A stretch of 64,000 nucleotides of DNA from Terriglobia bacterium (lineage in GTDB: Bacteria > Acidobacteriota > Terriglobia > Terriglobales > Acidobacteriaceae): positions 1,852 through 65,851 of the forward strand of contig CAVTHC010000004.1 in assembly GCA_963734455.1 (NCBI GenBank), read 5' to 3'. The position numbers were made by a program, and so were the translations under genes. Positions 35,451 through 55,669 of the stretch are shown piece by piece. Below the pieces are notes generated by a model, which saw only the letters and a list, made by a program, of their open reading frames with translations, was not told where the DNA came from and searched no databases. How positions within the stretch are numbered: position 1 is the stretch's first letter; every line of letters starts with the position of its first letter.

Positions 35451-37025
35451 TCAGTTCGCGGGAGACTGATCCCGCCGCAACGTCCTCATCGTGATCTCAG
35501 TGATGCTATCGGCAACTTGCTGCACCAACTTCTCTATCGGCTCCTGATCAGCGGTTGCCGGCAGTTTCAGGCCGAGCGAGGAAAGTTTGAACGCGAAGTT
35601 GGCCCGCAACCGTTCGGAGCGTTCCAGTTGCTCCCGGATACGCCTTTCGACCACGGTGGCTCCGTGTTCATCGGTGGAGGCAACGATGACCAGGGTCTCG
35701 CTCTGCGCGCTATGGCCGAGCGCGGGCAGTACCGCGTCCTTGTCCCCGAGAATGCAAGGTTCCAGGATCTGCAGGCAATACTCGCGAATGTCGTCCCAGT
35801 TGCCGGCGAACGGGGTGAGCAGGGGAGTAAGTTCCACGGTGATCAGGGAAAGGGAATCGCGCAAGCGGCCGCGGTGGGAGATGACGGGGGCCAGAAATTT
35901 TGCCAGCGAAAATAAAGGCAGGGTGAAGATAAAAGTGCTGCCATGGGAGAGCTGGCTTTCCACCCACATCTGTCCGCCTTGCAGCCGGACCAGTTCTTTC
36001 GAGATGTACAGTCCGAGGCCCAGCCCCTTGCGGCTGTCGTCGATCGAGTTGGGGTCCTGGTAGAGGCGTTCAAAGATCAGGGTCTTGGCTTCGGGACTGA
36101 TCCCGCGGCCGGTATCGGCGACAGAAATTTGCACGACGTCGGGATCGTTCTCGGTCAGGCAGGCCCTGACCATGACCGAGCCATCTTTGGGTGTGAACTT
36201 GATGGCATTGTCGAGCAGATTGGTGAGGACCTGCAGCACACGGTTGGGGTCGGCGTAGATGAATGGAATCCGGATGTCGAGACCGGCTTCGAGACCGATG
36301 CCTTTGGCCAGGGCGCTGCCCTGCAGCATGGCCACGGCCTGCCGGATCACGCCGCCGATGACGATGCAGTGCGGTTCGATGGAAATCTTTCCCGACTCGG
36401 CACGGGTCGCCTCCAGCAGGTCGGTGATCATGGCCCGCAGCTGGTTCACGCTGCGGAACACGGTTTCGAGGTGCTCGCGCTGTTCGGGAATCAGTTTGCC
36501 GGCCAGGCCATCCAGCATGAGCGAGACAAACTGGTGGATGCAGGTGAGCGGGGTGCGCAACTCGTGCGACACGTGGGAGAGGAATTCGTTCTTGAACTGC
36601 AGCTGCTGGCGCCGGCTGATGTCGAGCGAGGTCAGCAAGGCCTGGCGCTCGATGGCATAGCGCATGGCGCGCGCCAGTTGCTTGCTGTCAAAATTCCCCT
36701 TAACCAGGTAATCCTGGACGCCCTGATGGACCGCGCTGGCCGCGAGTTCTTCGTCGTCCTGCCCGGACAGCACGACGATGGGCACGCCCGGTGCCTGCTC
36801 AAGTACGGCGCGGTAAGTTTCCGCCCCGCGGCTGTCCGGCAGGTTCAGGTCGAGCAGCACCATGGCGGGAGGGGCGACGATCATGGAAGCCAGCCCGGTG
36901 GAGAGCCGGCTGACGCAGGAAACGGCAATATCGGAATGCGCCTCCACCAGCCGCAGCCGCACCAGGTCGGCGTCTCCCGGGTTGTCCTCGATCAGCAATA
37001 CGTGGGCATTGGCTACCTTATTCAC
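35451..37025 (-). CDS. receiver-histidine kinase fusion with an extra ~150-aa C-terminal domain of unknown type
   Basis: Probable GTG start at 37025, preceded by AAGGAGG and overlapping the upstream stop (GTGA). Receiver VLLIEDNPGD...LLDLNLPDSRG, H-box SHELRTPLT, ATPase G-box GLGLGLYIS, then an unassigned tail. Confidence 0.85.
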   Translation of the reverse strand: MNKVANAHVLLIEDNPGDADLVRLRLVEAHSDIAVSCVSRLSTGLASMIVAPPAMVLLDLNLPDSRGAETYRAVLEQAPGVPIVVLSGQDDEELAASAVHQGVQDYLVKGNFDSKQLARAMRYAIERQALLTSLDISRRQQLQFKNEFLSHVSHELRTPLTCIHQFVSLMLDGLAGKLIPEQREHLETVFRSVNQLRAMITDLLEATRAESGKISIEPHCIVIGGVIRQAVAMLQGSALAKGIGLEAGLDIRIPFIYADPNRVLQVLTNLLDNAIKFTPKDGSVMVRACLTENDPDVVQISVADTGRGISPEAKTLIFERLYQDPNSIDDSRKGLGLGLYISKELVRLQGGQMWVESQLSHGSTFIFTLPLFSLAKFLAPVISHRGRLRDSLSLITVELTPLLTPFAGNWDDIREYCLQILEPCILGDKDAVLPALGHSAQSETLVIVASTDEHGATVVERRIREQLERSERLRANFAFKLSSLGLKLPATADQEPIEKLVQQVADSITEITMRTLRRDQSPAN

Positions 37026-37465
37026 TCTTCCTCCTTGGGTGGAAGGCACGCGCATCCGATCCAAAAATCTTTCATCAGCTTCACCGCCGAAACCCAGGCA
37101 GCCAGGGTCGGCGGTTTACTCACATAGCTGTTGGCGCCCAGTTCATAGCTGCGCTCGATGTCTTTTGCGGCTTGCGACGTGCTGAAGATTACGACCGGTA
37201 TCCGGCGCAGGGCGGGGTCCGATTTCATATCGGCCAGCACCGCGCGTCCATCCTTGCGGGGCAGGTTCAGGTCGAGCAGCACCAGGTCGGGACGGGTGGA
37301 CGCCGCGTGTTTCCCCTGGTGGCGAAGATAAGCCATGGCTTCTACCCCGTCGGGGACGGTGCTGACCCGGCTTGGCCACGCGCTTTGGGCCAGAGCATCG
37401 GTGGTCAGGTCAAGATCGGCGGGATTGTCATCGACCAGCAGAATTTCAGACCCAGTGGGCATCAT
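37022..37465 (-). CDS. single-domain response regulator
   Basis: ILLVDDNPADL...LVLLDLNLPRKDG...VVIFSTS...GANSYVSKP. The ATG overlaps the upstream stop (ATGA). Confidence 0.85.
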   Translation of the reverse strand: MMPTGSEILLVDDNPADLDLTTDALAQSAWPSRVSTVPDGVEAMAYLRHQGKHAASTRPDLVLLDLNLPRKDGRAVLADMKSDPALRRIPVVIFSTSQAAKDIERSYELGANSYVSKPPTLAAWVSAVKLMKDFWIGCACLPPKEEE

Positions 37466-38649
37466 GCGGGGTCCTGTCTTTTGGAAAGTCCTTCAGCCGG
37501 CATGGTGAAATTTATGATTGTGCCTCCGCCTTCATGCGGCATTGCCTTGATCCGGCCGCCGTGCCGCTCGACGATCTTCTTGCAGATCGCCAGTCCGATG
37601 CCATTGCCGGGATATTCGGTGCGGGTATGCAATCGCTTGAAAATGATGAAGACGTGCTCGGCGTACTCCTCGGATATACCAATGCCGTTGTCGGCCACCG
37701 AGAAGATCCATTCCGTACTCTTTTTCTCCGCCGAGATCTGAATGACTGGGGCCTGGGCGCTACGAAACTTGATGGCGTTTCCGATAAGGTTCTGGAACAC
37801 CTGTTGCAGCTGTGATCCGTTGGCCAGCAGCCGGGGCAAAGGCCCATGCGTAACCGTCGCCCCGGTTTCGAGGATGGCGGTGCGCAGGTTCGCCATGGTC
37901 TGCTCCACCACCTCGTTGCAGTCCGTGGTCGCTACCGCAGTCTCTTGACGGCCTACGCGGGAAAACGCCAAGAGGTCGTGGATCAGGCTCTGCATGCGGG
38001 CTGCACCGTCGACCGCGTAATGGATATATTTGTCGGCCTGATCGTCCAGTTGGCCGCGATAGCGGTCGGCCAGCAGCTGGGTGTAGGCCGAGACCATGCG
38101 CAAGGGTTCCTGCAGGTCGTGCGAAGCCACGTAGGCGAACTGTTCCAGGTCGGCATTGGAGCGGGCCAGTTCCGCGATTTTCTGGGCCAGCGACTCTTGT
38201 CCGCGTTTGCGTTCTTCGCGCAATTGTCTGTCCTTCAGTGCGCCGCGCAAGGCCACCGACAACCGGGCCAGCGAATCTTTCAACACATAGTCGGTGACGC
38301 CTTGCTTGATGCACTCGACGGCGGTGACATCTCCCAGAGCGCCCGACACCAGGATCAAGGGGATGTCCAGGCCTTCCTGGCGCAGAATTTCCAGAGCTTC
38401 AGTACCTCTCCACTGTCCCAGGTTGTAGTCGGCCAGCACCACATCCGGGTGGTTGGTTCTTATCCGCAGACGGAAGTCATCGGCGGTTACGGCCACGTCG
38501 GCGGTGATTTCGAATTCACCCTTCTGCAGCTCCCGCAGGATCAGGTCCCGGTCAGCGGGATCGTCTTCGACCAGCAAAACCCGCAGCTGAGGCCGGGAAG
38601 CGTTTGCGGGACCGGACTCGCGGGCTAATTGGGTGGCGGCTGGGTTCAT
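37462..38649 (-). CDS. receiver-histidine kinase fusion
   Basis: Probable ATG at 38649 overlapping the upstream stop (ATGA). Receiver VLLVEDDPADRDL, H-box ASHDLQEPLR, ATPase domain GNGIGLAICKKIV. Confidence 0.85.
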   Translation of the reverse strand: MNPAATQLARESGPANASRPQLRVLLVEDDPADRDLILRELQKGEFEITADVAVTADDFRLRIRTNHPDVVLADYNLGQWRGTEALEILRQEGLDIPLILVSGALGDVTAVECIKQGVTDYVLKDSLARLSVALRGALKDRQLREERKRGQESLAQKIAELARSNADLEQFAYVASHDLQEPLRMVSAYTQLLADRYRGQLDDQADKYIHYAVDGAARMQSLIHDLLAFSRVGRQETAVATTDCNEVVEQTMANLRTAILETGATVTHGPLPRLLANGSQLQQVFQNLIGNAIKFRSAQAPVIQISAEKKSTEWIFSVADNGIGISEEYAEHVFIIFKRLHTRTEYPGNGIGLAICKKIVERHGGRIKAMPHEGGGTIINFTMPAEGLSKRQDPA

Positions 38650-39125
38650 TTCGATTCCTGCATGGCTGCGTTGACTTCGTGGACGCGCGGACGCTGGTTG
38701 ATTACCATCCAATACAGGCCTATCGTCTTCACGGTTGCGCGAAAATTCTCGAAGTCCACCGGCTTCTGAATGTAGCTGTTGGCTCCCAGATCGTAGCTGC
38801 GCACCAGGTCTCGTTCTTCCTTCGAAGAGGTCAGGACCACCACCGGAATCAACTTAGTCCGGGGGTCTTGCTTGAGCTGTGCTAGAACCTCGATGCCACC
38901 CACTTTGGGCAATTTCAAATCGAGCAGGACCAGTTTGGGCGGACGCTCGAAAGAACGGGTCGCAAACGCGCCGCGACAGAAGAGAAAATCCAAAGCTTCC
39001 TCTCCATCGCGGGCGACGAAGATGCTGTTGGCCAGGTGTTCGCGCCGCAGGGCATGGATGGCCAGCTCGGCGTCGTCGTTGCTGTCTTCCACCAGCAGGA
39101 TGTCAATCTCATCTGAGTTCACCAT
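38646..39125 (-). CDS. single-domain response regulator
   Basis: ATG at 39125 overlaps the PAS-kinase stop (ATGA). ILLVEDSNDDAEL...LVLLDLKLPKVGG...VVVLTSS...GANSYIQKP. Confidence 0.85.
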   Translation of the reverse strand: MVNSDEIDILLVEDSNDDAELAIHALRREHLANSIFVARDGEEALDFLFCRGAFATRSFERPPKLVLLDLKLPKVGGIEVLAQLKQDPRTKLIPVVVLTSSKEERDLVRSYDLGANSYIQKPVDFENFRATVKTIGLYWMVINQRPRVHEVNAAMQESK

Positions 39126-41263
39126 CACGCTCCCTCGACCACACTTTCTTTTCTTGTCGCGGCAGGTTGCATACCACCCAGGGTGAAATAGAATGTCGCG
39201 CCTCGGTCCAATTCCGCCTCCGCCCAAACCCTGCCTTGGTGCTTCTTGACGATTCGCTGCACGGTGGCCAGTCCCACACCGGTGCCCTCGAAGTCTTCCT
39301 CGCGGTGCAGGCGCTGAAAGACTCCAAAGAGCTTATCGGCATACTTCATACTGAACCCGACTCCGTTGTCGCGGACGAAGATGACGGAATCTCCATCGAT
39401 GTCCATTTGCCCAATCTCGATGACGGCGGGCGAACGTGGCCGCGAGTATTTGAGGGCATTCGAAATCAGGTTCTGGAATACCTGCTTGGTCAAGGTGGGG
39501 TCACACTCGACCGATGGCAAATCGCCGATTCTCCATTCCAGCTGCCGCCCCGCGATCTCGGGCTGGAGTATGCCGATGACCTCCTCGATCATGGGGCTCA
39601 AGGCGGTTAGCTGCAGATTAGGCGCCTGACGGCCGACCCGAGCCAGGCTTAACAACTCATCCACCAACTGACCCATTTTGTGGGTCCCATCCTGGATCCG
39701 CTGCAGATAATGTGCCGCTTCGGGAGCGAGAGTAGAGCCAAATTCTTCGACTAGAACTCCCGAAAAACCTGCGATGTGGCGCAACGGAGCACGCAGGTCA
39801 TGGGCGACGCTATAGGTGAAAGACTCCAGGTCTTGGTTGGCCTCGTCCAACTGGGCGGTGCGTTCCGCCACGCGGCGCTCGAGCCCCTCGTTCAACTTCT
39901 GGATTTCGTATTCGGACGCCTTGGTTTGGGTGATGTCGCGAAAGGCCACTACGCCGCCCCGCACCGTGCCGTGGCGGTCTTTCAAGGGCCCGGCGCTGGC
40001 CTCGATCCAGACACCCTCGCTAGTTTCTCGATGGCGCACAAACATCTGGGCGGTGCTGGCCTCGCCGCGAATGGCACGCACCAAGGGTAGTTGGTCGGAA
40101 GGAAAAGGGGTCACCATGTCTGCCAGGAAGAGGCCGTAGTGCTCTGACCATTGCTGGCTGGACAGGTTGGTAGCGCCCCGGCCAAGAATTTTCTCGGCAG
40201 CCGGGTTCCAGATGAGGAACTTTCCCTGTTCGTCGGCAGCTACTAGGCCCTCGCCCATACTGTCCAGCACGGCTTGCAGCATGCGCCTCTCTATCTCGAG
40301 AGCTTGCTGCGAACGCTTCAGTTCGTCGGACTGGCGCGCGAGTTCCCGGGCTTGCGCTGCCAGCTTTTCTTCCGTCTGCACGCGCTGGGTGATGTCATGC
40401 AAGACTTTGGCAAAGCCTCGCAGCGTTCCGGCCTGGTCATACATAGGTACTATGACGACCTGGGCCAGAAATGTTGAACCGTCCTTACGGATCCGCGTCC
40501 CGCGGCTCTCGAAGCGTCCCTTGGCGATCGCTTCCTGCAATGCCAGGGCGGGAAGACCGTCGTTTTGCTGGTCCGGCGGGTAGAAAATGGAAATGGGCCG
40601 GCCTAGAATTTCTTCCCGGCTGTAGCCCTTGATGCGGGCTGCTCCTGCATTCCAGGTGGCCACCCGGCCCTCCGGGTCAACCATGTAAACCGCGTAGTCC
40701 TTGATGCCGTCGAGCAGCAGGCGAAGCATTTCTTCATTGGTTCGCAGCCCTTCTTCGGTTCGCAGGCGGTCCGTGATGTCGCGCAGAATAACGGTAAACA
40801 GTTTTCTCCCGCCGGTTACGGTGTGGGAGACGGAAGCCTCGACCTGAAATTCCTCGCCGTCGGCTCGCAAGGCGCAGAGCGGGCCTCTCGGGTGCATGCT
40901 CCGATTGCTGCCTCCAGTTTCACCAAACTTGAGGATGTGTGCGCGGTGGGCGACCTGGAAGCGCTCTGGAATGAAGCGGTCGATCGTTTGACCCAACGCC
41001 TCCGCCGGCGGGCAACGAAACATTTTCGCCGCCGCCGCGTTGAACAGCAGGATGCGCTGTTGCTCGTCCAGAGTAATGATGGCGTCCCGGCCCGACTCGA
41101 TGATGTCACGCAGGCCGTCCGGGCTTTCCTGCAGCGCCCCTGCAGTTCCGAGTTGAGCAGTCGCGAGGTGACTCATGCGGGAAAATGTCCTGGCTGCCAA
41201 TCTCTCAGACACAGCTGAAGCCGGCAGGCGCGGTTGGACTGAATACCCATGTATCTCAGTCAT
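39125..41263 (-). CDS. multi-PAS sensor histidine kinase
   Basis: 712-aa ORF with several PAS-like repeats, H-box VAHDLRAPLRH and ATPase domain GTGVGLATVQRIV. No obvious TM segments. Confidence 0.85.
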   Translation of the reverse strand: MTEIHGYSVQPRLPASAVSERLAARTFSRMSHLATAQLGTAGALQESPDGLRDIIESGRDAIITLDEQQRILLFNAAAAKMFRCPPAEALGQTIDRFIPERFQVAHRAHILKFGETGGSNRSMHPRGPLCALRADGEEFQVEASVSHTVTGGRKLFTVILRDITDRLRTEEGLRTNEEMLRLLLDGIKDYAVYMVDPEGRVATWNAGAARIKGYSREEILGRPISIFYPPDQQNDGLPALALQEAIAKGRFESRGTRIRKDGSTFLAQVVIVPMYDQAGTLRGFAKVLHDITQRVQTEEKLAAQARELARQSDELKRSQQALEIERRMLQAVLDSMGEGLVAADEQGKFLIWNPAAEKILGRGATNLSSQQWSEHYGLFLADMVTPFPSDQLPLVRAIRGEASTAQMFVRHRETSEGVWIEASAGPLKDRHGTVRGGVVAFRDITQTKASEYEIQKLNEGLERRVAERTAQLDEANQDLESFTYSVAHDLRAPLRHIAGFSGVLVEEFGSTLAPEAAHYLQRIQDGTHKMGQLVDELLSLARVGRQAPNLQLTALSPMIEEVIGILQPEIAGRQLEWRIGDLPSVECDPTLTKQVFQNLISNALKYSRPRSPAVIEIGQMDIDGDSVIFVRDNGVGFSMKYADKLFGVFQRLHREEDFEGTGVGLATVQRIVKKHQGRVWAEAELDRGATFYFTLGGMQPAATRKESVVEGA

Positions 41264-41542: not shown

Positions 41543-43552
41543 ATGGGCAGCGCCATGCGCCGGCTCAGCCCGCTGGCGCTGCTTTTCCTTGCCGTTTTCC
41601 CGTTATGGGCGCAGGTGAAATCCGCCGACCTGACCGACCTGAGCCTAGAAGACTTGATGGACACCAAGGTGACCTCGGTGTCGAAGACCGAGCAAAAAAT
41701 ATCGCGGACCGCGTCCGCCATATTCGTCATCAGCGCGATCGACATTGCGCGTTCCGGCGCCACCAACATTCCCGATCTGTTGCGCATGGTTCCCGGACTC
41801 GATGTGGCGCAGATTAATGCCAACACCTGGGCCATCAATGCCCGCGGGCTTAACGGACGTTTCAGCAACGAACTGCTGGTGATGCTGGATGGGCGGGCGG
41901 TGTACACCCCGACGTTTGGCGGGGTTTTGTGGGACACGCTGGACCTTCCCCTGGAGGACATCGAAAGCATTGAAGTCATTCGCGGACCGGGGGGAACAAT
42001 CTGGGGCGCCAACGCGGTCAACGGAGTGGTCAACATCATTACCAAAAAAGCCGGGGAAACCAAAGGCGGCATGCTGGTGGCCGGTGGCGGCAATCTGGAC
42101 CAGGGATTTGGGACAGCGCAGTATGGCGGCGGGCTGGGCAAGACCACGGACTACAGGATTTTCAGCAAATACTTTAACCAGGATCATCTGCCGGGTCCTG
42201 CCGGCGCTGTCGGGGCGGATGGCTGGCACCTGTTGCGCGGCGGCTTTCGCACCGACAGTCGCCTGTCGGGAAAAGACCACCTCATGGTGGAGGGCGATTT
42301 ATACAGCGGGCAGGAGAACGCTCCGGTCACGTTTCTTCCCTCGGTTACGTCGCCCGGGCTGCAGAACATCGATATTCAGGCTCCGCTGTCGGGCGGTTTT
42401 CTGAATTCCACCTGGGACCACGCTTTTTCCGCTGCTTCCGGCACCACCCTGCAGGTTTCCTTCGACCGCTACCAGCGCGCCGATATTCTCCAGGAGGACC
42501 GCAACACATTTGCCATCGACTTCCAGCACCACTTCGCCTGGGGCAGTCGGCAAGCCATCGTTTGGGGAGGCGGTTACCGGTTCACCGATTCGAGCACGCA
42601 CGGAAGTCTCACCGTGTCCCTGACTCCTCCGGACCTCAACATGCAAACCTTCAGCACGTTCTTCCAGGACGAAATCGCCTTGCTGCCGGACAAGCTCTAC
42701 CTCACGCTCGGCACCAAGCTGGAACATGACTTCTACACCGGGGTTGACTGGATGCCGAGCGCGCGGGTGTCGTGGACCCCCGACGCCCGGCAAATGTTTT
42801 GGGCAGCCGTCTCCCGGGCAGATCGAACGCCCTCACAGACCGATACCTCGGTGCGGGCCAATGTTGGCGGATTCCCCGGGCCCGGCGGCGTTCCGGTGTT
42901 ATTGGCCTTCGTGGGCAATCCGCTTGTCCAGAACGAAGAGCTGATTGCGTACGAACTGGGGTACCGGGTTGCGCTCTCCCCGCGTCTCTCGCTGGATGTC
43001 GCGGCCTATTACAGCGACTACCAGCATCTGGAGACCGCCGAGCCGGGCGCGCCTTTCTTCGAGAGCACGCCCTCTCCTCCTCATCTCGTCCAACCGTTTA
43101 TTTTCGAGAACCTCATGCATGGCGAAGCGCATGGACTCGAGCTGGCGGCGAACTGGAAGGTTACGGAGCGCTGGATGCTCAGCCCCGGGTATGCCTTCGA
43201 GCAAGTCCATTTGCACCTGGACGCCGCCAGCCATGACACCAGTTCCCTCCTGCCGGAGGAGGGCAGCAGCCCGGTCCACAGCGCCCAGCTGCGGTCCCAC
43301 CTCAACCTGTCGCGAGGAATCGGGTGGGATGCCTCGCTGTATTTCGTGGACCGCCTCAGGAGCGGGGCAGTCCCGTCTTATACCCGGCTGGATACCGGGC
43401 TCACCTGGCGATGGACGGAACAGCTCTCCATGAGCGTGGTGGGGCAGGACCTGGTGAGAGACCGGCACCTGGAGTTTGTCGATGAGAGCGGCACCGTGAG
43501 GTCCACGCTGATCAAGCGGAGCATTTACGGGAAACTTACCTGGCAATTCTGA
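41543..43552 (+). CDS. TonB-dependent outer-membrane receptor
   Basis: Signal RRLSPLALLFLAVFPLWAQ. Plug-domain signature (LEDLMDTKVTSVSK...IFVISAIDIARSGATNIPDLLRMVPGL). Long beta-barrel ending in an aromatic residue (…KLTWQF). The start (41543 or 41555) is uncertain. Confidence 0.85.
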   Translation: MGSAMRRLSPLALLFLAVFPLWAQVKSADLTDLSLEDLMDTKVTSVSKTEQKISRTASAIFVISAIDIARSGATNIPDLLRMVPGLDVAQINANTWAINARGLNGRFSNELLVMLDGRAVYTPTFGGVLWDTLDLPLEDIESIEVIRGPGGTIWGANAVNGVVNIITKKAGETKGGMLVAGGGNLDQGFGTAQYGGGLGKTTDYRIFSKYFNQDHLPGPAGAVGADGWHLLRGGFRTDSRLSGKDHLMVEGDLYSGQENAPVTFLPSVTSPGLQNIDIQAPLSGGFLNSTWDHAFSAASGTTLQVSFDRYQRADILQEDRNTFAIDFQHHFAWGSRQAIVWGGGYRFTDSSTHGSLTVSLTPPDLNMQTFSTFFQDEIALLPDKLYLTLGTKLEHDFYTGVDWMPSARVSWTPDARQMFWAAVSRADRTPSQTDTSVRANVGGFPGPGGVPVLLAFVGNPLVQNEELIAYELGYRVALSPRLSLDVAAYYSDYQHLETAEPGAPFFESTPSPPHLVQPFIFENLMHGEAHGLELAANWKVTERWMLSPGYAFEQVHLHLDAASHDTSSLLPEEGSSPVHSAQLRSHLNLSRGIGWDASLYFVDRLRSGAVPSYTRLDTGLTWRWTEQLSMSVVGQDLVRDRHLEFVDESGTVRSTLIKRSIYGKLTWQF

Positions 43553-43567
43553 AACAGGAACCAAAAA

Positions 43568-44185
43568 TTGGACGGTCCCGACAAGACGCCTGACAGGTTT
43601 GCCGAAGCCGCCGCCGTCTGGCCCCACGCCTCCCGAAATTGCTGGCGGCGGCTGGCGGTCGCGCTGGTCTTCGGTTTCGTGGTCATGGGGATGCGGGCGC
43701 AGACGGCCACGGAATATCAGGTCAAGGCGGCGTTTCTGTTCAATTTCGCGAAGTTCGTGGAATGGCCGGCTGACGCGTTTCCGGGCGCCGAGGCCCCGCT
43801 GCAAATTTGCGTGCTGGGACAGGATCCGTTCGACCCCGATTTCGAACAGGCGATCGCAGAGAAGACGGTGAACGGCCGCCGCCTGGCGATTGTTCATCCG
43901 GCCGGCCTGGGACAGGCAAAAGCCTGCCAGATCATCTTCGTGGCGGCTTCGGAAGGGCCGCGCATGCGCGAGATCCTGCGTGGCCTGAGAGGAACCGGCG
44001 CTCTCACTGTGGGCGATGCCGCCGGTTTTGCCCGCATGGGCGGGATCATCAATTTTGTCCTGGATGACAACCGGGTGCGTTTTGAAATCAATCTGCAAGC
44101 CGCGGACCGGGCCCACCTGAAGCTCAGCGCCCGGCTCTTGACCGTGGCCAAGCTGATCGTGCCGGACGATGGAACGGTGAACTAG
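43568..44185 (+). CDS. YfiR-family (DUF4154) periplasmic protein
   Basis: YQVKAAFLFNFAKFVEWP...LQICVLG...CQIIFV...GALTVGD...GGIINFVLDDNRVRFEINL...A..LKLSARLL matches the YfiR/DUF4154 pattern as I remember it. The start codon is uncertain (TTG at 43568). Confidence 0.75.
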   Translation: MDGPDKTPDRFAEAAAVWPHASRNCWRRLAVALVFGFVVMGMRAQTATEYQVKAAFLFNFAKFVEWPADAFPGAEAPLQICVLGQDPFDPDFEQAIAEKTVNGRRLAIVHPAGLGQAKACQIIFVAASEGPRMREILRGLRGTGALTVGDAAGFARMGGIINFVLDDNRVRFEINLQAADRAHLKLSARLLTVAKLIVPDDGTVN

Positions 44186-46935
<2,750 letters not shown>

Positions 46936-46939
<4 letters not shown>

Positions 46940-47952
46940 ATACTCCACCCGCCGGCCAGGCCCCGGAGGCCGGTTCCTCCGTGATATTGTCCCCGCCAGA
47001 TACCGTGTTGATCGCGGAAGATGATCCCATCTTCCGCCGCATCCTGGAAAACTGGTTGCAGAAATGGAATTACCGGGTCACCTCCCTGGAAAACGGCCTG
47101 GACGCGTGGAGCGTGCTGCAGCAAAAAGATGCTCCCCAGATGGCAATCCTGGACTGGATGATGCCGGGTCTCGACGGGGTTGAACTGTGCCGAAGGATCC
47201 GCAGTCACGAAGAGGGTCCATATAAATATGTGCTTCTACTCACGGCGAAAGGGAGCAAGGAAGATGTGGTGGCCGGCCTGGAAGCCGGGGCCGATGACTA
47301 TCTGACCAAACCATTTGATGTAAACGAACTGCGCGCGCGGGTGCGGGCGGGCAAGCGGATTCTGGAGCTCCAGGGCGCGCTGCTGAAAGTCCAAACCGAG
47401 CTGCAATTCGAGTCGGCGCACGACCACCTGACCGGCCTATGGAACCGCGGCGCCATCATGGGGCTGCTGCACCGGGAGACCCAGCGCAGCGTGCGGATCG
47501 GCGAGCCCCTGGGAGTGATGATGGCGGACCTCGACCACTTCAAACAGATCAACGACACCCACGGGCATCAGATTGGAGATGCCGTGTTGCGTGAAGTGGC
47601 CCGGCGCATGCTTGCCTCGGTGAGAAATTACGACTACGTGGGCCGCTACGGCGGGGAAGAGTTCCTGGTCGTGCTGGCCGAGTGCTCCGCCGCGGACCTG
47701 ATCGCGACCGCGGAACGGATGCGGGCCGGGGTCTCGAGAAAGCCGGTTGAAACCGATGTCGGGCCCATTGCCGTGACGGTGAGCATTGGAATCGTGGCCG
47801 CGCATCAATTGGGGGAACTGGTCAAGGGAGAGGCCCTGTTGCGGGCCGCCGATACAGCTCTCTATTGCGCCAAGACCAACGGCAGGAACCGCGTGGAACG
47901 CGCCCCGGAAATCGGTCCGGCGTCCCGCGCCCACGCCGGCGCGGCGCAGTAA
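46936..47952 (+). CDS. response regulator with GGDEF diguanylate cyclase output
   Basis: Receiver [12 protein letters not shown]...[16 protein letters not shown] domain with active site GGEEF and an RxxD I-site (RNYD) five residues upstream. ATGA overlap with the kinase stop. Confidence 0.9.
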
Positions 47953-47999
47953 AACGGCAACTCTCCGCAAATTTTGCGGATAACGCGTGGCGCAAAATT

Positions 48000-48461
48000 T
48001 TAGCGCCGGTATTTTCCCATCCACTCCGCCTGGCCGAGCACCAGGCTTTGCATCGCCTGTTCTACTTCCTGCCGGCTCACGCCCGGTTTGAGATCCAGCT
48101 TTTCCCTGAGCGCGAAGATTTTGAAAAAATAACGATGGGGCTGCCCCGGAGGCGGACACGGACCGTTGTAGCCGATCCGGCGAAAGTCGTTGCGCCCTTG
48201 CCGCTCGCCGCCCGGCAGTTCGTCAATCCGGGTCACACCTTCCGCCAGGCTGGTGGCAGCGGCGGGCAGGTCGAACAGCACCCAGTGGGTCCAGGTGCCG
48301 GAGGGAGCATCGGGATCATCGGCGATCAGCGCAAAGCTCTGAGTTCCGGGCGGAGGTTCGATCCACGAAAGTTCGGGAGAGACATCGGCGCCGTCGCAGG
48401 TGAATTTCCGGGGAATGTCGCCGCCATTCTCAAAAGCGCTGCTGGAGATCGCAAATGCCAT
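48000..48461 (-). CDS. YbhB/YbcL-family PEBP (Raf-kinase-inhibitor-like) protein
   Basis: FENGGDIPRKFTCDGADVSPEL.W...DDPDAP.GTWTHWV...GYNGPCPPPG..HRYFFKIFAL is the bacterial PEBP signature. Confidence 0.85.
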   Translation of the reverse strand: MAFAISSSAFENGGDIPRKFTCDGADVSPELSWIEPPPGTQSFALIADDPDAPSGTWTHWVLFDLPAAATSLAEGVTRIDELPGGERQGRNDFRRIGYNGPCPPPGQPHRYFFKIFALREKLDLKPGVSRQEVEQAMQSLVLGQAEWMGKYRR

Positions 48462-48504
48462 CTGCTCTGCTCTCGCTGCAGTTCCTGGCCCGGCTCAAAT
48501 CTTT

Positions 48505-48545
48505 GCCGAGCTGCGCTCGGCCTGGACGGGTCGGAGACCCGCCCT
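48505..48545. repeat. REP-like element (family A, copy 2)
   Basis: GCCGAGCTGCGCTCGGCCTGGACGGG is identical to 28674-28699. Followed by a second imperfect hairpin CGGGTC-GGA-GACCCG. Confidence 0.75.
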
Positions 48546-48569
48546 ACACAGACCGTGGTGGTGCAAGCG

Positions 48570-49466
48570 CTACTGGGTCGAGATGGTGAAATTTACCGTA
48601 ATCCGGGCTTCGGTTTCGACTGCCTGACCTGATTGCAGGTACGGCCTGAAGCGCCATTGTTTTACTGCTTCCCGGGCGGCGGTTGAAAGAATCGTGGGAC
48701 CGCTCAGAACGTGAAGGTCCTGAATATTTCCGTCCCGACCGATCAGGGCTTCGAGCACGACCGCGCCTTGCACCTTCATCTCTTTGGCCAGCAGCGGATA
48801 GTTAGGTTGAACCGGGCGGGAAATGATTTCGGCGGCCCCGGGAGAAAGATGGACGCGGGCGGTGGCATCGGCGATGCCGGCGGAATCCGAAGAAGCAGTG
48901 GGTGATCCGGACGCAGCGGAAGCCGGCGAGGGAGCTGCTGCCGAAGGCGAGAAAGGTGTTCTCGGCTGCAGGTCCACCCTGACCGAATTGCTGGTGGCCT
49001 GAACAGTGCGGTGCTCGTCTCCCGCGACCACTTCGACTTCGAGCGGAGGCAGGACGGCGCGAGTCATCACGACCGGCGCTAAGGCGGGCGCTGGCGCTGG
49101 ATCAGCGGTAGAAGGCGGCGGCGTGCGGGGCTTCGACTTCGCCCGCGCGTGAACCGCGGCCGGCGGCGTCGCCGGCGTGGCCGTGCTGGCGGTCTCTGCT
49201 GGAGCTTTCACATCGGATGAAGGTTCTTCGACGGGTTCCGATTCTGATTGCGCCGGCGGCGCCGGGGGAAACCAGAAGTCGCGGTCCTTGATCAAAACCA
49301 GAATGAGTGCGGCCAACAGCAGAGCCAGTGCGACCAGCATCTGACGGCGCTGCTTCCTTTCGGAACCATCCCCGACCGAAGGCGCAAGGTCAGTTACTTG
49401 ATTTTCCTCCAGCAACGGCATGACGCGAAAGCCCTCCCGCCCGCAGGGGAGACGGGCCTGCGGCAT
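48570..49466 (-). CDS. TonB-family energy transducer
   Basis: N-terminal TM MLVALALLLAALILVLI, a Pro/Ala-rich spacer, and a C-terminal TonB domain (PNYPLLAKEMKVQGAVVLEALIGRDGNIQDLHVLSG...REAVKQWRFRPY). Confidence 0.75.
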   Translation of the reverse strand: MPQARLPCGREGFRVMPLLEENQVTDLAPSVGDGSERKQRRQMLVALALLLAALILVLIKDRDFWFPPAPPAQSESEPVEEPSSDVKAPAETASTATPATPPAAVHARAKSKPRTPPPSTADPAPAPALAPVVMTRAVLPPLEVEVVAGDEHRTVQATSNSVRVDLQPRTPFSPSAAAPSPASAASGSPTASSDSAGIADATARVHLSPGAAEIISRPVQPNYPLLAKEMKVQGAVVLEALIGRDGNIQDLHVLSGPTILSTAAREAVKQWRFRPYLQSGQAVETEARITVNFTISTQ

Positions 49467-50149: not shown

Positions 50150-51445
50150 TCAGCAGGCGAGCTGGTCGCGGGTCAGCTTTAATCCGTTGAGATTGCCCAG
50201 AACCGTCACCGCAATGGATTCCGTCTGGAAGAATTCATTGGCCAGTTCGGTCAACTGCTCGACCGTGACGTTCTCGATCCTCTCGATCAGTTCATCCATG
50301 GTGTAGAAGTGGTCGAAGTACATCTCCTGCCGGGCCAGGTTGGACATGCGCGCGCTCGAGGATTCCAGCGACAGCATCAGGCTCCCCTTCAGCTGATCTT
50401 TCGACCGGCGCAACTCCTCCGCGGGAACCGGTTCCACCTTGAGTTTGCGGAATTCCGAGACCACCGACTGCACCACCTTGCCGGCGGATTCGCGCGAGGT
50501 TCCGGCATAGACCGAGAGGCATCCGGTATCGCGGTAGGGTGACAGGTCGCTGTAGATGGCGTAGGCCAGGCCCTGGCGCTCGCGAATATTCTGGAACAGC
50601 CGCGAACTCATGCCGCCGCCGAGCAAAGTATTCAGAATGTAGGACGCGTGCCGGTTTTCATGAGCAATGGGATGGGAAGGCACGCCCACACAAATCTGCA
50701 CCTGCTCCAGAGCTTTCTTGTTGCGCATGATGATGCGCGCCGCGGTCTTGGGCGGAGAGCCGTGGAAGCCGTTCTTCATCGGCTTCATGTGTCCGAAGTG
50801 ACGGATCGCAAGGTCCACGAATTGCTTGTGCTTCAGATGGCCGGCGGCGGAAATAATCATGTTGCCGGGCGCAAAACGCTGCTTGTAAAAATCCCGCACC
50901 GGATCGCGCTCGAACTTCCGGACCGTGTCCTTGGTTCCCAGGATGGGTTTCCCCAGGGGATGGTCTTTCCAGAAACTCTGGGTAAAGATTTCGTGGACCA
51001 GATAATCGGGATTGTCCTCGTCCATTTTTATTTCTTCGAGGATCACGCCGCGCTCCCGGCCAATGTCGTTGGCGTCAAAGACCGGGTTCAGCACCAGATC
51101 GCTGAGCACGTCCATGGCGACGGGCAAATGCTCGTCCAGCACTTTGATGTTGAAGCCGATGCATTCCTTGGCGGTAAAAGCGTCCATGTTGCCGCCGATG
51201 GAGTCGACCTCGCGCGCAATTTTCTCCGCGCTGCGGTTCTTCGTGCCCTTGAACACCATGTGCTCGATGAAGTGCGAGATGCCGTTCTGCTGCAGGTCCT
51301 CGTCCCGGGAACCCGTCTTGATCCAGATTCCGATCGAAGCCGAGCGAATGTGTTCCATCTCCTCGGTAATGAGGATCAGCCCGTTGGGCAGCATTTCGCG
51401 GCGTATGTTTCGGACCTCCTGCACCATACAGGTATTGTTGCACAA
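50150..51445 (-). CDS. M16-family (pitrilysin/insulinase-like) zinc peptidase
   Basis: Inverted zinc motif HFIEH (HxxEH) near the N-terminus. Two-domain length of about 430 aa. Confidence 0.85.
   Translation of the reverse strand: MCNNTCMVQEVRNIRREMLPNGLILITEEMEHIRSASIGIWIKTGSRDEDLQQNGISHFIEHMVFKGTKNRSAEKIAREVDSIGGNMDAFTAKECIGFNIKVLDEHLPVAMDVLSDLVLNPVFDANDIGRERGVILEEIKMDEDNPDYLVHEIFTQSFWKDHPLGKPILGTKDTVRKFERDPVRDFYKQRFAPGNMIISAAGHLKHKQFVDLAIRHFGHMKPMKNGFHGSPPKTAARIIMRNKKALEQVQICVGVPSHPIAHENRHASYILNTLLGGGMSSRLFQNIRERQGLAYAIYSDLSPYRDTGCLSVYAGTSRESAGKVVQSVVSEFRKLKVEPVPAEELRRSKDQLKGSLMLSLESSSARMSNLARQEMYFDHFYTMDELIERIENVTVEQLTELANEFFQTESIAVTVLGNLNGLKLTRDQLAC

Positions 51446-52966: not shown

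Positions 52967-55669
<2,703 letters not shown>

Follow-up and report, generated by a model that had tools for sequence, protein, structure and literature searches.

In the YfiBNR system of Pseudomonas aeruginosa and Escherichia coli (TpbB/DgcN–YfiR–YfiB), as in HmsCDE of Yersinia and AwsXRO of Pseudomonas fluorescens, a periplasmic protein with the YfiR fold stands beside an inner-membrane CHASE8–HAMP sensor, there is a partner in the outer membrane, and the output is cyclic di-GMP (c-di-GMP) (PMC4655355). Here we describe a locus with comparable elements in a stretch of 64,000 nucleotides from a bacterium of the class Terriglobia (Acidobacteriota; assembly GCA_963734455.1, contig CAVTHC010000004.1), which we call the window. 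Four of its genes encode a TonB-dependent receptor, a YfiR-like periplasmic protein, a hybrid sensor histidine kinase and a response regulator with a GGDEF domain (table 1). We give a probability of about 55% to the reading in which this operon links a signal at the outer membrane to the synthesis of c-di-GMP through the full chain proposed below.

The comparison with YfiBNR reveals clear differences. The outer-membrane partner in the window is a 22-strand-type TonB-dependent receptor, whereas YfiB is an OmpA/Pal-like lipoprotein. The output side of the sensor is a histidine kinase with a His-Asp-His-Asp relay, and the GGDEF domain stands on a separate regulator, whereas YfiN is a sensor–HAMP–GGDEF protein. 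The YfiR-like protein falls below the model for true YfiR and has no equivalent of one of the two YfiR cysteine pairs, C145–C152. We found no OmpA/Pal-like YfiB among the four genes or their neighbours, and a tblastn search with a single OmpA C-terminal domain, which has limited sensitivity, gave no match in the window at E ≤ 1e-3. The system works like YfiBNR in its periplasmic logic, yet it is no member of YfiBNR, because three defining features of the latter are missing (a YfiR equivalog with both cysteine pairs, a sensor–HAMP–GGDEF partner and a YfiB lipoprotein).

The closest described gene neighbourhood is a trio that NCBIfam already curates as NF053590 (TOL_0244 family TonB-dependent receptor), NF053591 (TOL_0243 family YfiR-like periplasmic protein) and NF053592 (sensor histidine kinase, YfiR-like protein-associated). 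The novelty of the neighbourhood implied by the initial annotation of this DNA was therefore too high. The window shares with this trio its gene order and all three protein families, and the type locus, in Thalassolituus oleivorans, likewise ends in c-di-GMP domains. In contrast to the type locus, where the relay is fully fused and followed by an HDOD gene, the relay of the window is split into a kinase and a separate receiver–GGDEF protein, and it has neither an EAL domain nor an HDOD gene. Full-text literature searches retrieved no paper on the mechanism of the trio.

The likeness to TonB-dependent transducers of the FecA–FecR–FecI type suggests that the state of a receptor is relayed inward. 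Unlike FecA, the window receptor has no N-terminal signalling domain of about 80 residues: some 16 residues lead from the signal peptide to the TonB box, and Pfam recognises the Plug and barrel domains only. Its relay runs instead to a two-component kinase, and no gene for an anti-sigma factor or an extracytoplasmic function (ECF) sigma factor lies near the operon, whose neighbours are kinases and a TonB-like gene.

Results

The initial annotation had described four tightly packed genes on the forward strand, and its coordinates all hold. The junctions are, in order, a gap of 15 nucleotides (nt), a gap of 0 nt where a TAG stop is followed by an ATG, and an overlap of 4 nt (ATGA). Together the genes make up a real operon. 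The domain calls of that annotation stand as well, including the GGEEF active site and the RNYD I-site of the receiver–GGDEF protein, but it had omitted two receivers between the ATPase and HPt domains of the kinase.

Table 1. Features of the operon and of its surroundings, with positions in the window.
Feature	Position	Strand	Description
TonB-dependent receptor gene	41543..43552	+	669 residues; signal peptide ~1–24, then plug and barrel; TOL_0244-type
Conserved N-terminal peptide of the receptor	41627..41686	+	residues 29–48; DLTDLSLEDLMDTKVTSVSK
YfiR-like periplasmic protein gene, TOL_0243 family	43568..44185	+	205 residues; TTG start; signal peptide, mature from ~residue 45
Hybrid sensor histidine kinase gene	44186..46939	+	917 residues; first transmembrane segment, CHASE8, second transmembrane segment, HAMP, HisKA (H287), HATPase, receiver (D578), receiver (D722), HPt (H858)
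Periplasmic sensor loop of the kinase, CHASE8/YfiN-type	44291..44662	+	~residues 36–159
HPt domain of the kinase	46658..46900	+	residues 825–905; H858; Pfam Hpt 1.3e-13
Response regulator gene, putative diguanylate cyclase	46936..47952	+	338 residues; receiver (D73), GGDEF (GGEEF 239–243, I-site RNYD 230–233)
Multi-PAS histidine kinase gene	39125–41263	−	divergent from the operon
Receiver-kinase gene	37462–38712	−	divergent from the operon
Receiver-kinase gene	35451–37064	−	divergent from the operon
TonB_C-domain gene	48570–49466	−	convergent, 617 nt past the cyclase gene
M16 peptidase gene	50150–51445		follows the TonB_C-domain gene

The first three genes lie on the same strand and adjacent to each other, in the order receptor, YfiR-like protein and sensor. 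The YfiR-like protein scores 164.5 bits on NF053591 (cut-off 125) and covers positions 1–149 of 150. The kinase scores 220.8 bits on NF053592 as a whole protein and 224.7 bits when restricted to residues 1–240 (cut-off 194). The receptor covers NF053590 entirely (1–604 of 604) with 620.2 bits, just below the cut-off of 645 (25 bits under), and the next family reaches 103 bits. On the same model, trio receptors from the same genus score between 598 and 630 bits, and the cut-off is exceeded only in genome G038, which belongs to another family of the same order.

We then consider the evidence for each protein. The YfiR-like protein, whose gene is the only one with DUF4154 in the genome, matches the Pfam family DUF4154/YfiR-HmsC-like at 3e-47 and is 31% identical to TOL_0243. 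A profile made from 25 homologues retrieved YfiR chains, and nothing else, from the PDB (approx. 2e-6). An AlphaFold model, with a mean predicted local distance difference test score (pLDDT) of 75, gave 15 top PDB matches that were all YfiR, with template modelling scores of 0.66–0.79 on the target. The YfiR fold is thereby confirmed in the predicted structure. Two of its cysteines, C81 and C120, stand in the alignment at the positions of C71 and C110 in P. aeruginosa YfiR, and the equivalent pair is kept across phyla. In YfiR, a C71–C110 disulfide was reported under oxidising conditions and is broken under reducing ones (PMC4655355). Some related loci (L017, L019, L021, L022 and L065) have two tandem YfiR-like genes.

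The kinase presents in Pfam a CHASE8 domain (residues 41–146, 4.4e-20) followed by HAMP, HisKA, HATPase, two receivers and HPt. Hydrophobic segments at residues ~13–35 and ~160–182 delimit an outside loop of some 124 residues. The part comprising membrane segments, sensor and HAMP (residues 8–240) matches positions 3–229 of the DgcN/YfiN model (E = 3.3e-24). This is the second-best family for the N-terminus of the kinase, behind NF053592 and well ahead of the third, and by this sequence match the sensor is of the YfiN type. Elsewhere, the same sensor module is fused directly to a GGDEF domain in a YfiN-like architecture (L088:1486–4011, right after the YfiR-like gene, and L079:15423–17858). 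This sensor–GGDEF form bridges YfiNR and the kinase form.

The rest of the kinase has the residues of an unorthodox hybrid histidine kinase of the BarA/TorS/ArcB type: H287, an N-box at 400, G1 at 436, G2 at 465, D578, D722 and H858. By these residues it is such a kinase, and it is predicted to be catalytically active. The regulator, which has receiver and GGDEF domains in Pfam, resembles receiver–GGDEF cyclases of the PleD/WspR type in its phospho-aspartate (D73), its GG(D/E)EF motif and its RxxD I-site, and five residues separate RNYD from GGEEF, which is the canonical I-site spacing. Its best NCBIfam models are PleD (242 bits, cut-off 474) and DgcR (192 bits), both under their cut-offs. PleD has two receivers, whereas the window regulator has one.

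Proposed pathway

We propose that the TonB-dependent receptor would be the input of the chain. The YfiR-like protein would act as a periplasmic coupler, binding the CHASE8 loop of the kinase and holding it in one signalling state, as YfiR does with YfiN. Occupancy or energisation of the receptor would divert the YfiR-like protein. Our first guess for this step, at a little short of even odds, is that it would be captured on the N-terminal peptide of the receptor, by the TonB box, in analogy with the sequestration of YfiR by YfiB; our second and slightly more tentative guess is that it would bind an imported ligand. The kinase would autophosphorylate at H287 and the phosphoryl group would travel by way of a receiver aspartate (D578 or D722) and the HPt histidine H858 to D73 of the regulator. 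The GGDEF domain of the latter would make c-di-GMP, with product feedback through the RNYD I-site. The contacts between the proteins, the sign of the regulation and the ligand are what we infer in this chain.

The N-terminus of the receptor bears on the diversion step. The receptor matches the Pfam models for the plug (1.9e-20) and for the TonB-dependent barrel (7.4e-23), and it is 40% identical to TOL_0244 of T. oleivorans over 391 residues (E = 3e-85). The match to the solved relatives Cir, PfeA and BtuB is limited to the plug. Residues 39–192 align with positions 5–155 of the BtuB chain. From this alignment and from the position of the TonB box of BtuB, which we take to be at about residues 6–12, we placed the candidate TonB-box equivalent at residues 40–46 (DTKVTSV). 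An acidic, leucine-rich extension of 11 residues, DLTDLSLEDLM, immediately precedes it. The 20-residue peptide listed in table 1 shows at least 80% conservation over 87 receptors of related loci, even though 31 of these are of a subtype that is only ~30% identical overall. It is found in all seven proteobacterial and desulfobacterial loci, and its version in TOL_0244 is DMNIEELLSMEVTSVSKK. When we searched the genome in six frames, the pattern of the motif occurred once, at the window receptor; the genome has 16 Plug-domain matches.

The related loci have two receptor subtypes, 'VTSVSK' and 'VYSASKH', which are ~30% mutually identical. They are in tandem in some loci and single in others (L017, L019, L029, L038, L065 and others), and the sister loci L027 and L034 retain different subtypes.

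The conserved peptide is a candidate for the site where the YfiR-like protein would dock. In the most specific form of this idea, which we regard as rather doubtful, the peptide before the TonB box would be a ligand-gated site that, when exposed, captures the YfiR-like protein and so frees the CHASE8 kinase. If true, this would add to the forms of TonB-dependent cell-surface signalling one that is present across several phyla and that, unlike the FecA–FecR type, links the occupancy of the receptor with a two-component phosphorelay and with c-di-GMP.

The receptor could also be an ordinary transporter whose substrate binds the YfiR-like protein, the loaded or unloaded form of which would modulate the CHASE8 kinase, so that the receptor and the YfiR-like protein never touch. 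We hold this to be possible, if on the unlikely side. The model for such an imported-ligand co-sensor is LuxP with LuxQ, or TorT with TorS; as there, a soluble periplasmic protein with a fold related to binding proteins is encoded in the window beside the kinase that it would modulate. The YfiR fold is half a periplasmic binding protein, and single-lobe substrate-binding proteins are the next structural matches of the AlphaFold model after YfiR. The intact plug, barrel and TonB-box equivalent agree with transport, and many loci have two to three tandem receptors with a single YfiR-like gene, as would suit several substrates and one sensor. The resemblance has its limits: LuxP and TorT are two-lobed where the YfiR fold has a single lobe, and the conserved set of the window includes an outer-membrane receptor. 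Furthermore, a plain transporter would leave unexplained why the conservation of an 11-residue peptide across phyla and receptor subtypes equals that of the plug core, and why its pattern occurs in the genome only at the window receptor.

Proteomics of T. oleivorans provide the only experimental data that we found on the family, and they have been read in terms of transport. TOL_0244 was about sevenfold higher on n-C28 (long-chain) alkane and was interpreted by the authors as an uptake protein; TOL_0243 was detected only on n-C28, not significantly (PMC6304351). In the same study a similarity of 40.3% is given between TOL_0244 and OmpS of Alcanivorax dieselolei B-5 (B5T_01485) (PMC6304351). 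Later papers present OmpS as a sensor and chemotaxis trigger for extracellular alkane. OmpS is a TonB-dependent receptor described as a signal sensor and not solely as a transporter, and it is at most a lead for the family.

We analysed the co-conservation of the three genes with a pattern scan of species-representative genomes. This retrieved 80 loci, mostly from Acidobacteriota with a few from Verrucomicrobiota. A receptor-like open reading frame ends beside the YfiR-like gene in 74 of the 80 loci. Of the 78 loci with downstream room, 76 have a CHASE8-type sensor that begins directly after the YfiR-like gene, mostly only a few bases away. In 41 related genomes the three families are mostly together, always adjacent, or all missing. 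The exceptions are G008, where the receptor is a fragment at a contig end, G028 and G035, which have weak or partial YfiR-like matches and a sensor with no receptor match, and G034, which has a sensor match only. The search of 24 other genomes within the genus detected the trio in only some 6 of them.

These patterns bear on the role of the receptor. It might be co-transcribed cargo, with the kinase sensing something else through the YfiR-like protein, e.g. redox or envelope stress as proposed for the YfiR cysteines. The conservation across phyla of the pair equivalent to C71–C110 would be in line with this, and a few loci have no adjacent receptor (L025, L048, L052 and L055). Yet the operon begins with the receptor gene in the 74 loci counted above, the receptor mostly occurs alongside the other two families or is absent along with them in the 41 genomes (with G028, G034 and G035 as exceptions), and it carries the family-specific conserved peptide, all of which makes the cargo explanation improbable.

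The last step of the proposed pathway links the HPt domain to the receiver–GGDEF protein. Sufficient flanking sequence is available for 66 loci. An HPt domain and a short downstream receiver–GGDEF gene occur together in 30 of them, both are absent from another 30, and 6 are discordant. Distant loci are more informative. In T. oleivorans (L094) the receptor gene and the YfiR-like gene are followed by a gene for one protein of 1645 residues, and then by an HDOD gene. This protein contains CHASE8, HAMP, HisKA, HATPase, two receivers, HPt, a third receiver, PAS, GGDEF and EAL. The window kinase aligns in the same order to its residues 1–908 (34% identity, E = 2e-148), and the window regulator aligns to its receiver (964–1100) and GGDEF domain (1221–1375). 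Fused proteins of similar length are found in L096–L099 (1514–1647 residues, T. oleivorans included), with matching domains among those listed; EAL was found by hmmscan in L094 and is listed for L098. The fused loci span at least the Gammaproteobacteria. In Desulfomarina profundi the same chain is split at another point, after the last receiver. The six distant loci whose context is complete each have c-di-GMP domains at the end. Because of the gene fusions, which are stronger evidence than the co-occurrence test on a tree reported below, the predicted phosphotransfer from the HPt domain to the receiver–GGDEF protein is well supported.

It is very improbable that the receiver–GGDEF gene is a chance neighbour and that the HPt domain feeds a regulator encoded elsewhere, as might be thought because about half of the loci have the trio with no GGDEF gene and because four close relatives have HPt with no nearby receiver–GGDEF gene, since the kinase and regulator genes are joined by a 4-nt overlap, the fused versions of five TOL_0243-homologue loci align in the same order with the two genes of the window, Desulfomarina has a differently split form, and the sister loci L066 and L087 differ in the HPt domain and the GGDEF gene jointly.

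In each of the six proteobacterial and desulfobacterial loci L094–L099 the relay is followed by an HDOD-domain gene of ~285–305 residues, and the window has none. Two apparent one-chain database proteins with DUF4154 and CHASE8 were rejected as fusion evidence. The first (P0197) contains a garbled, frameshifted stretch, and the second (P0220) is a single read-through whose topology would put CHASE8 on the wrong side of the membrane.

Neighbouring genes

Upstream of the operon, the block of three kinases (35451–41263) is likewise found beside the trio in L014, L025, L032, L033, L035, L037 and L040, and it is syntenic in a few close relatives. In other loci a gene of ~310–355 residues containing a GGDEF domain is often divergent just upstream of the receptor (L017, L019, L021, L023, L025, L028–L031, L036, L065 and L097:3569–4570). 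The last of these encodes a PAS–GGDEF protein; L097 is a TOL_0243-homologue locus outside the acidobacterial set, and the window has a PAS kinase in that place.

Downstream, the TonB-like gene (48570–49466) was considered as a dedicated partner and ruled out. It has orthologues at 67–85% identity in all 24 other genomes of the genus that were searched, with or without the trio, and is for this reason a chromosomal backbone gene outside the module. In genomes carrying the trio elsewhere, the TonB orthologue is on another contig. The window's genome has 24 TonB_C matches. The 617 nt between the stop of the cyclase gene and that of the TonB-like gene (47953–48569) correspond to ~295 nt in the closest relative (L014), and an open reading frame of 255 residues that overlaps this stretch (47865–48632, forward strand) has no Pfam match. 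A MASE1–PAS hybrid histidine kinase of 900 residues with a receiver, encoded at 52967–55669 on the reverse strand, appears unrelated to the operon.

Scans for regulatory signals and defence genes were negative. Upstream of the receptor the riboswitch and RNA scan detected no riboswitch, and its sole match, to the miRNA model mir-2032, lay far below threshold (23.8 bits; gathering score 100) and was taken as noise. Sigma-70 promoter and terminator scans gave sites that are no commoner than in shuffled sequence. The PADLOC models of anti-phage defence had no match.

Discussion

The interpretation put forward in the initial annotation, i.e. a YfiBNR-like pathway rewired through a phosphorelay, is supported by the sequence comparisons. 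It had assigned the second gene to the YfiR family and named failure in profile searches as a refutation; the Pfam and NF053591 matches and the fold of the AlphaFold model bear the assignment out. The guess that the extracytoplasmic domain of the kinase, which it put at ~130 residues, resembles the YfiN sensor proved right because of the match to the DgcN/YfiN model. Lack of co-conservation was the other refutation that it named and that sequence data can address, and this did not come true either: the genes are co-conserved, with the fourth gene tracking the HPt domain. The suggestion that the HPt domain could feed the downstream receiver–GGDEF protein gains support from the gene fusions in distant loci.

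Several observations weigh against the pathway. The model for true YfiR, NF053586, gives the YfiR-like protein 37 bits where the cut-off is 85, and the cysteine pair C145–C152 is without counterpart. The plug, barrel and TonB box of the receptor are all complete, and it may be a plain transporter. The HPt domain occurs with no nearby receiver–GGDEF gene in 4 of the 66 loci, and the GGDEF gene occurs without the HPt domain in 2. On a tree built from the YfiR-like protein and the sensor, each of these two traits changes about five times, and the four independent pairs comprise two that differ in the same way, none that differ in opposite ways and two with no difference. The direction is right, but with four independent pairs only the test lacks statistical power. 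Since all fused forms were retrieved as homologues of one query, TOL_0243, the fused loci may be one clade that goes back to a single fusion event. Finally, the literature search found no interaction, phosphotransfer or c-di-GMP measurement for any member of the family.

The window adds one more member to the trio, in a split form of the relay, and beside the fused forms it makes the link between kinase and cyclase testable. If the proposed pathway is true, the YfiR/YfiN pair of repressor and sensor would be a portable module, open to different partners in the outer membrane and to different outputs. Many bacteria of soils and of the sea would then report the occupancy of an outer-membrane receptor, or passage through it, directly to c-di-GMP, the main switch between the motile and the attached state.

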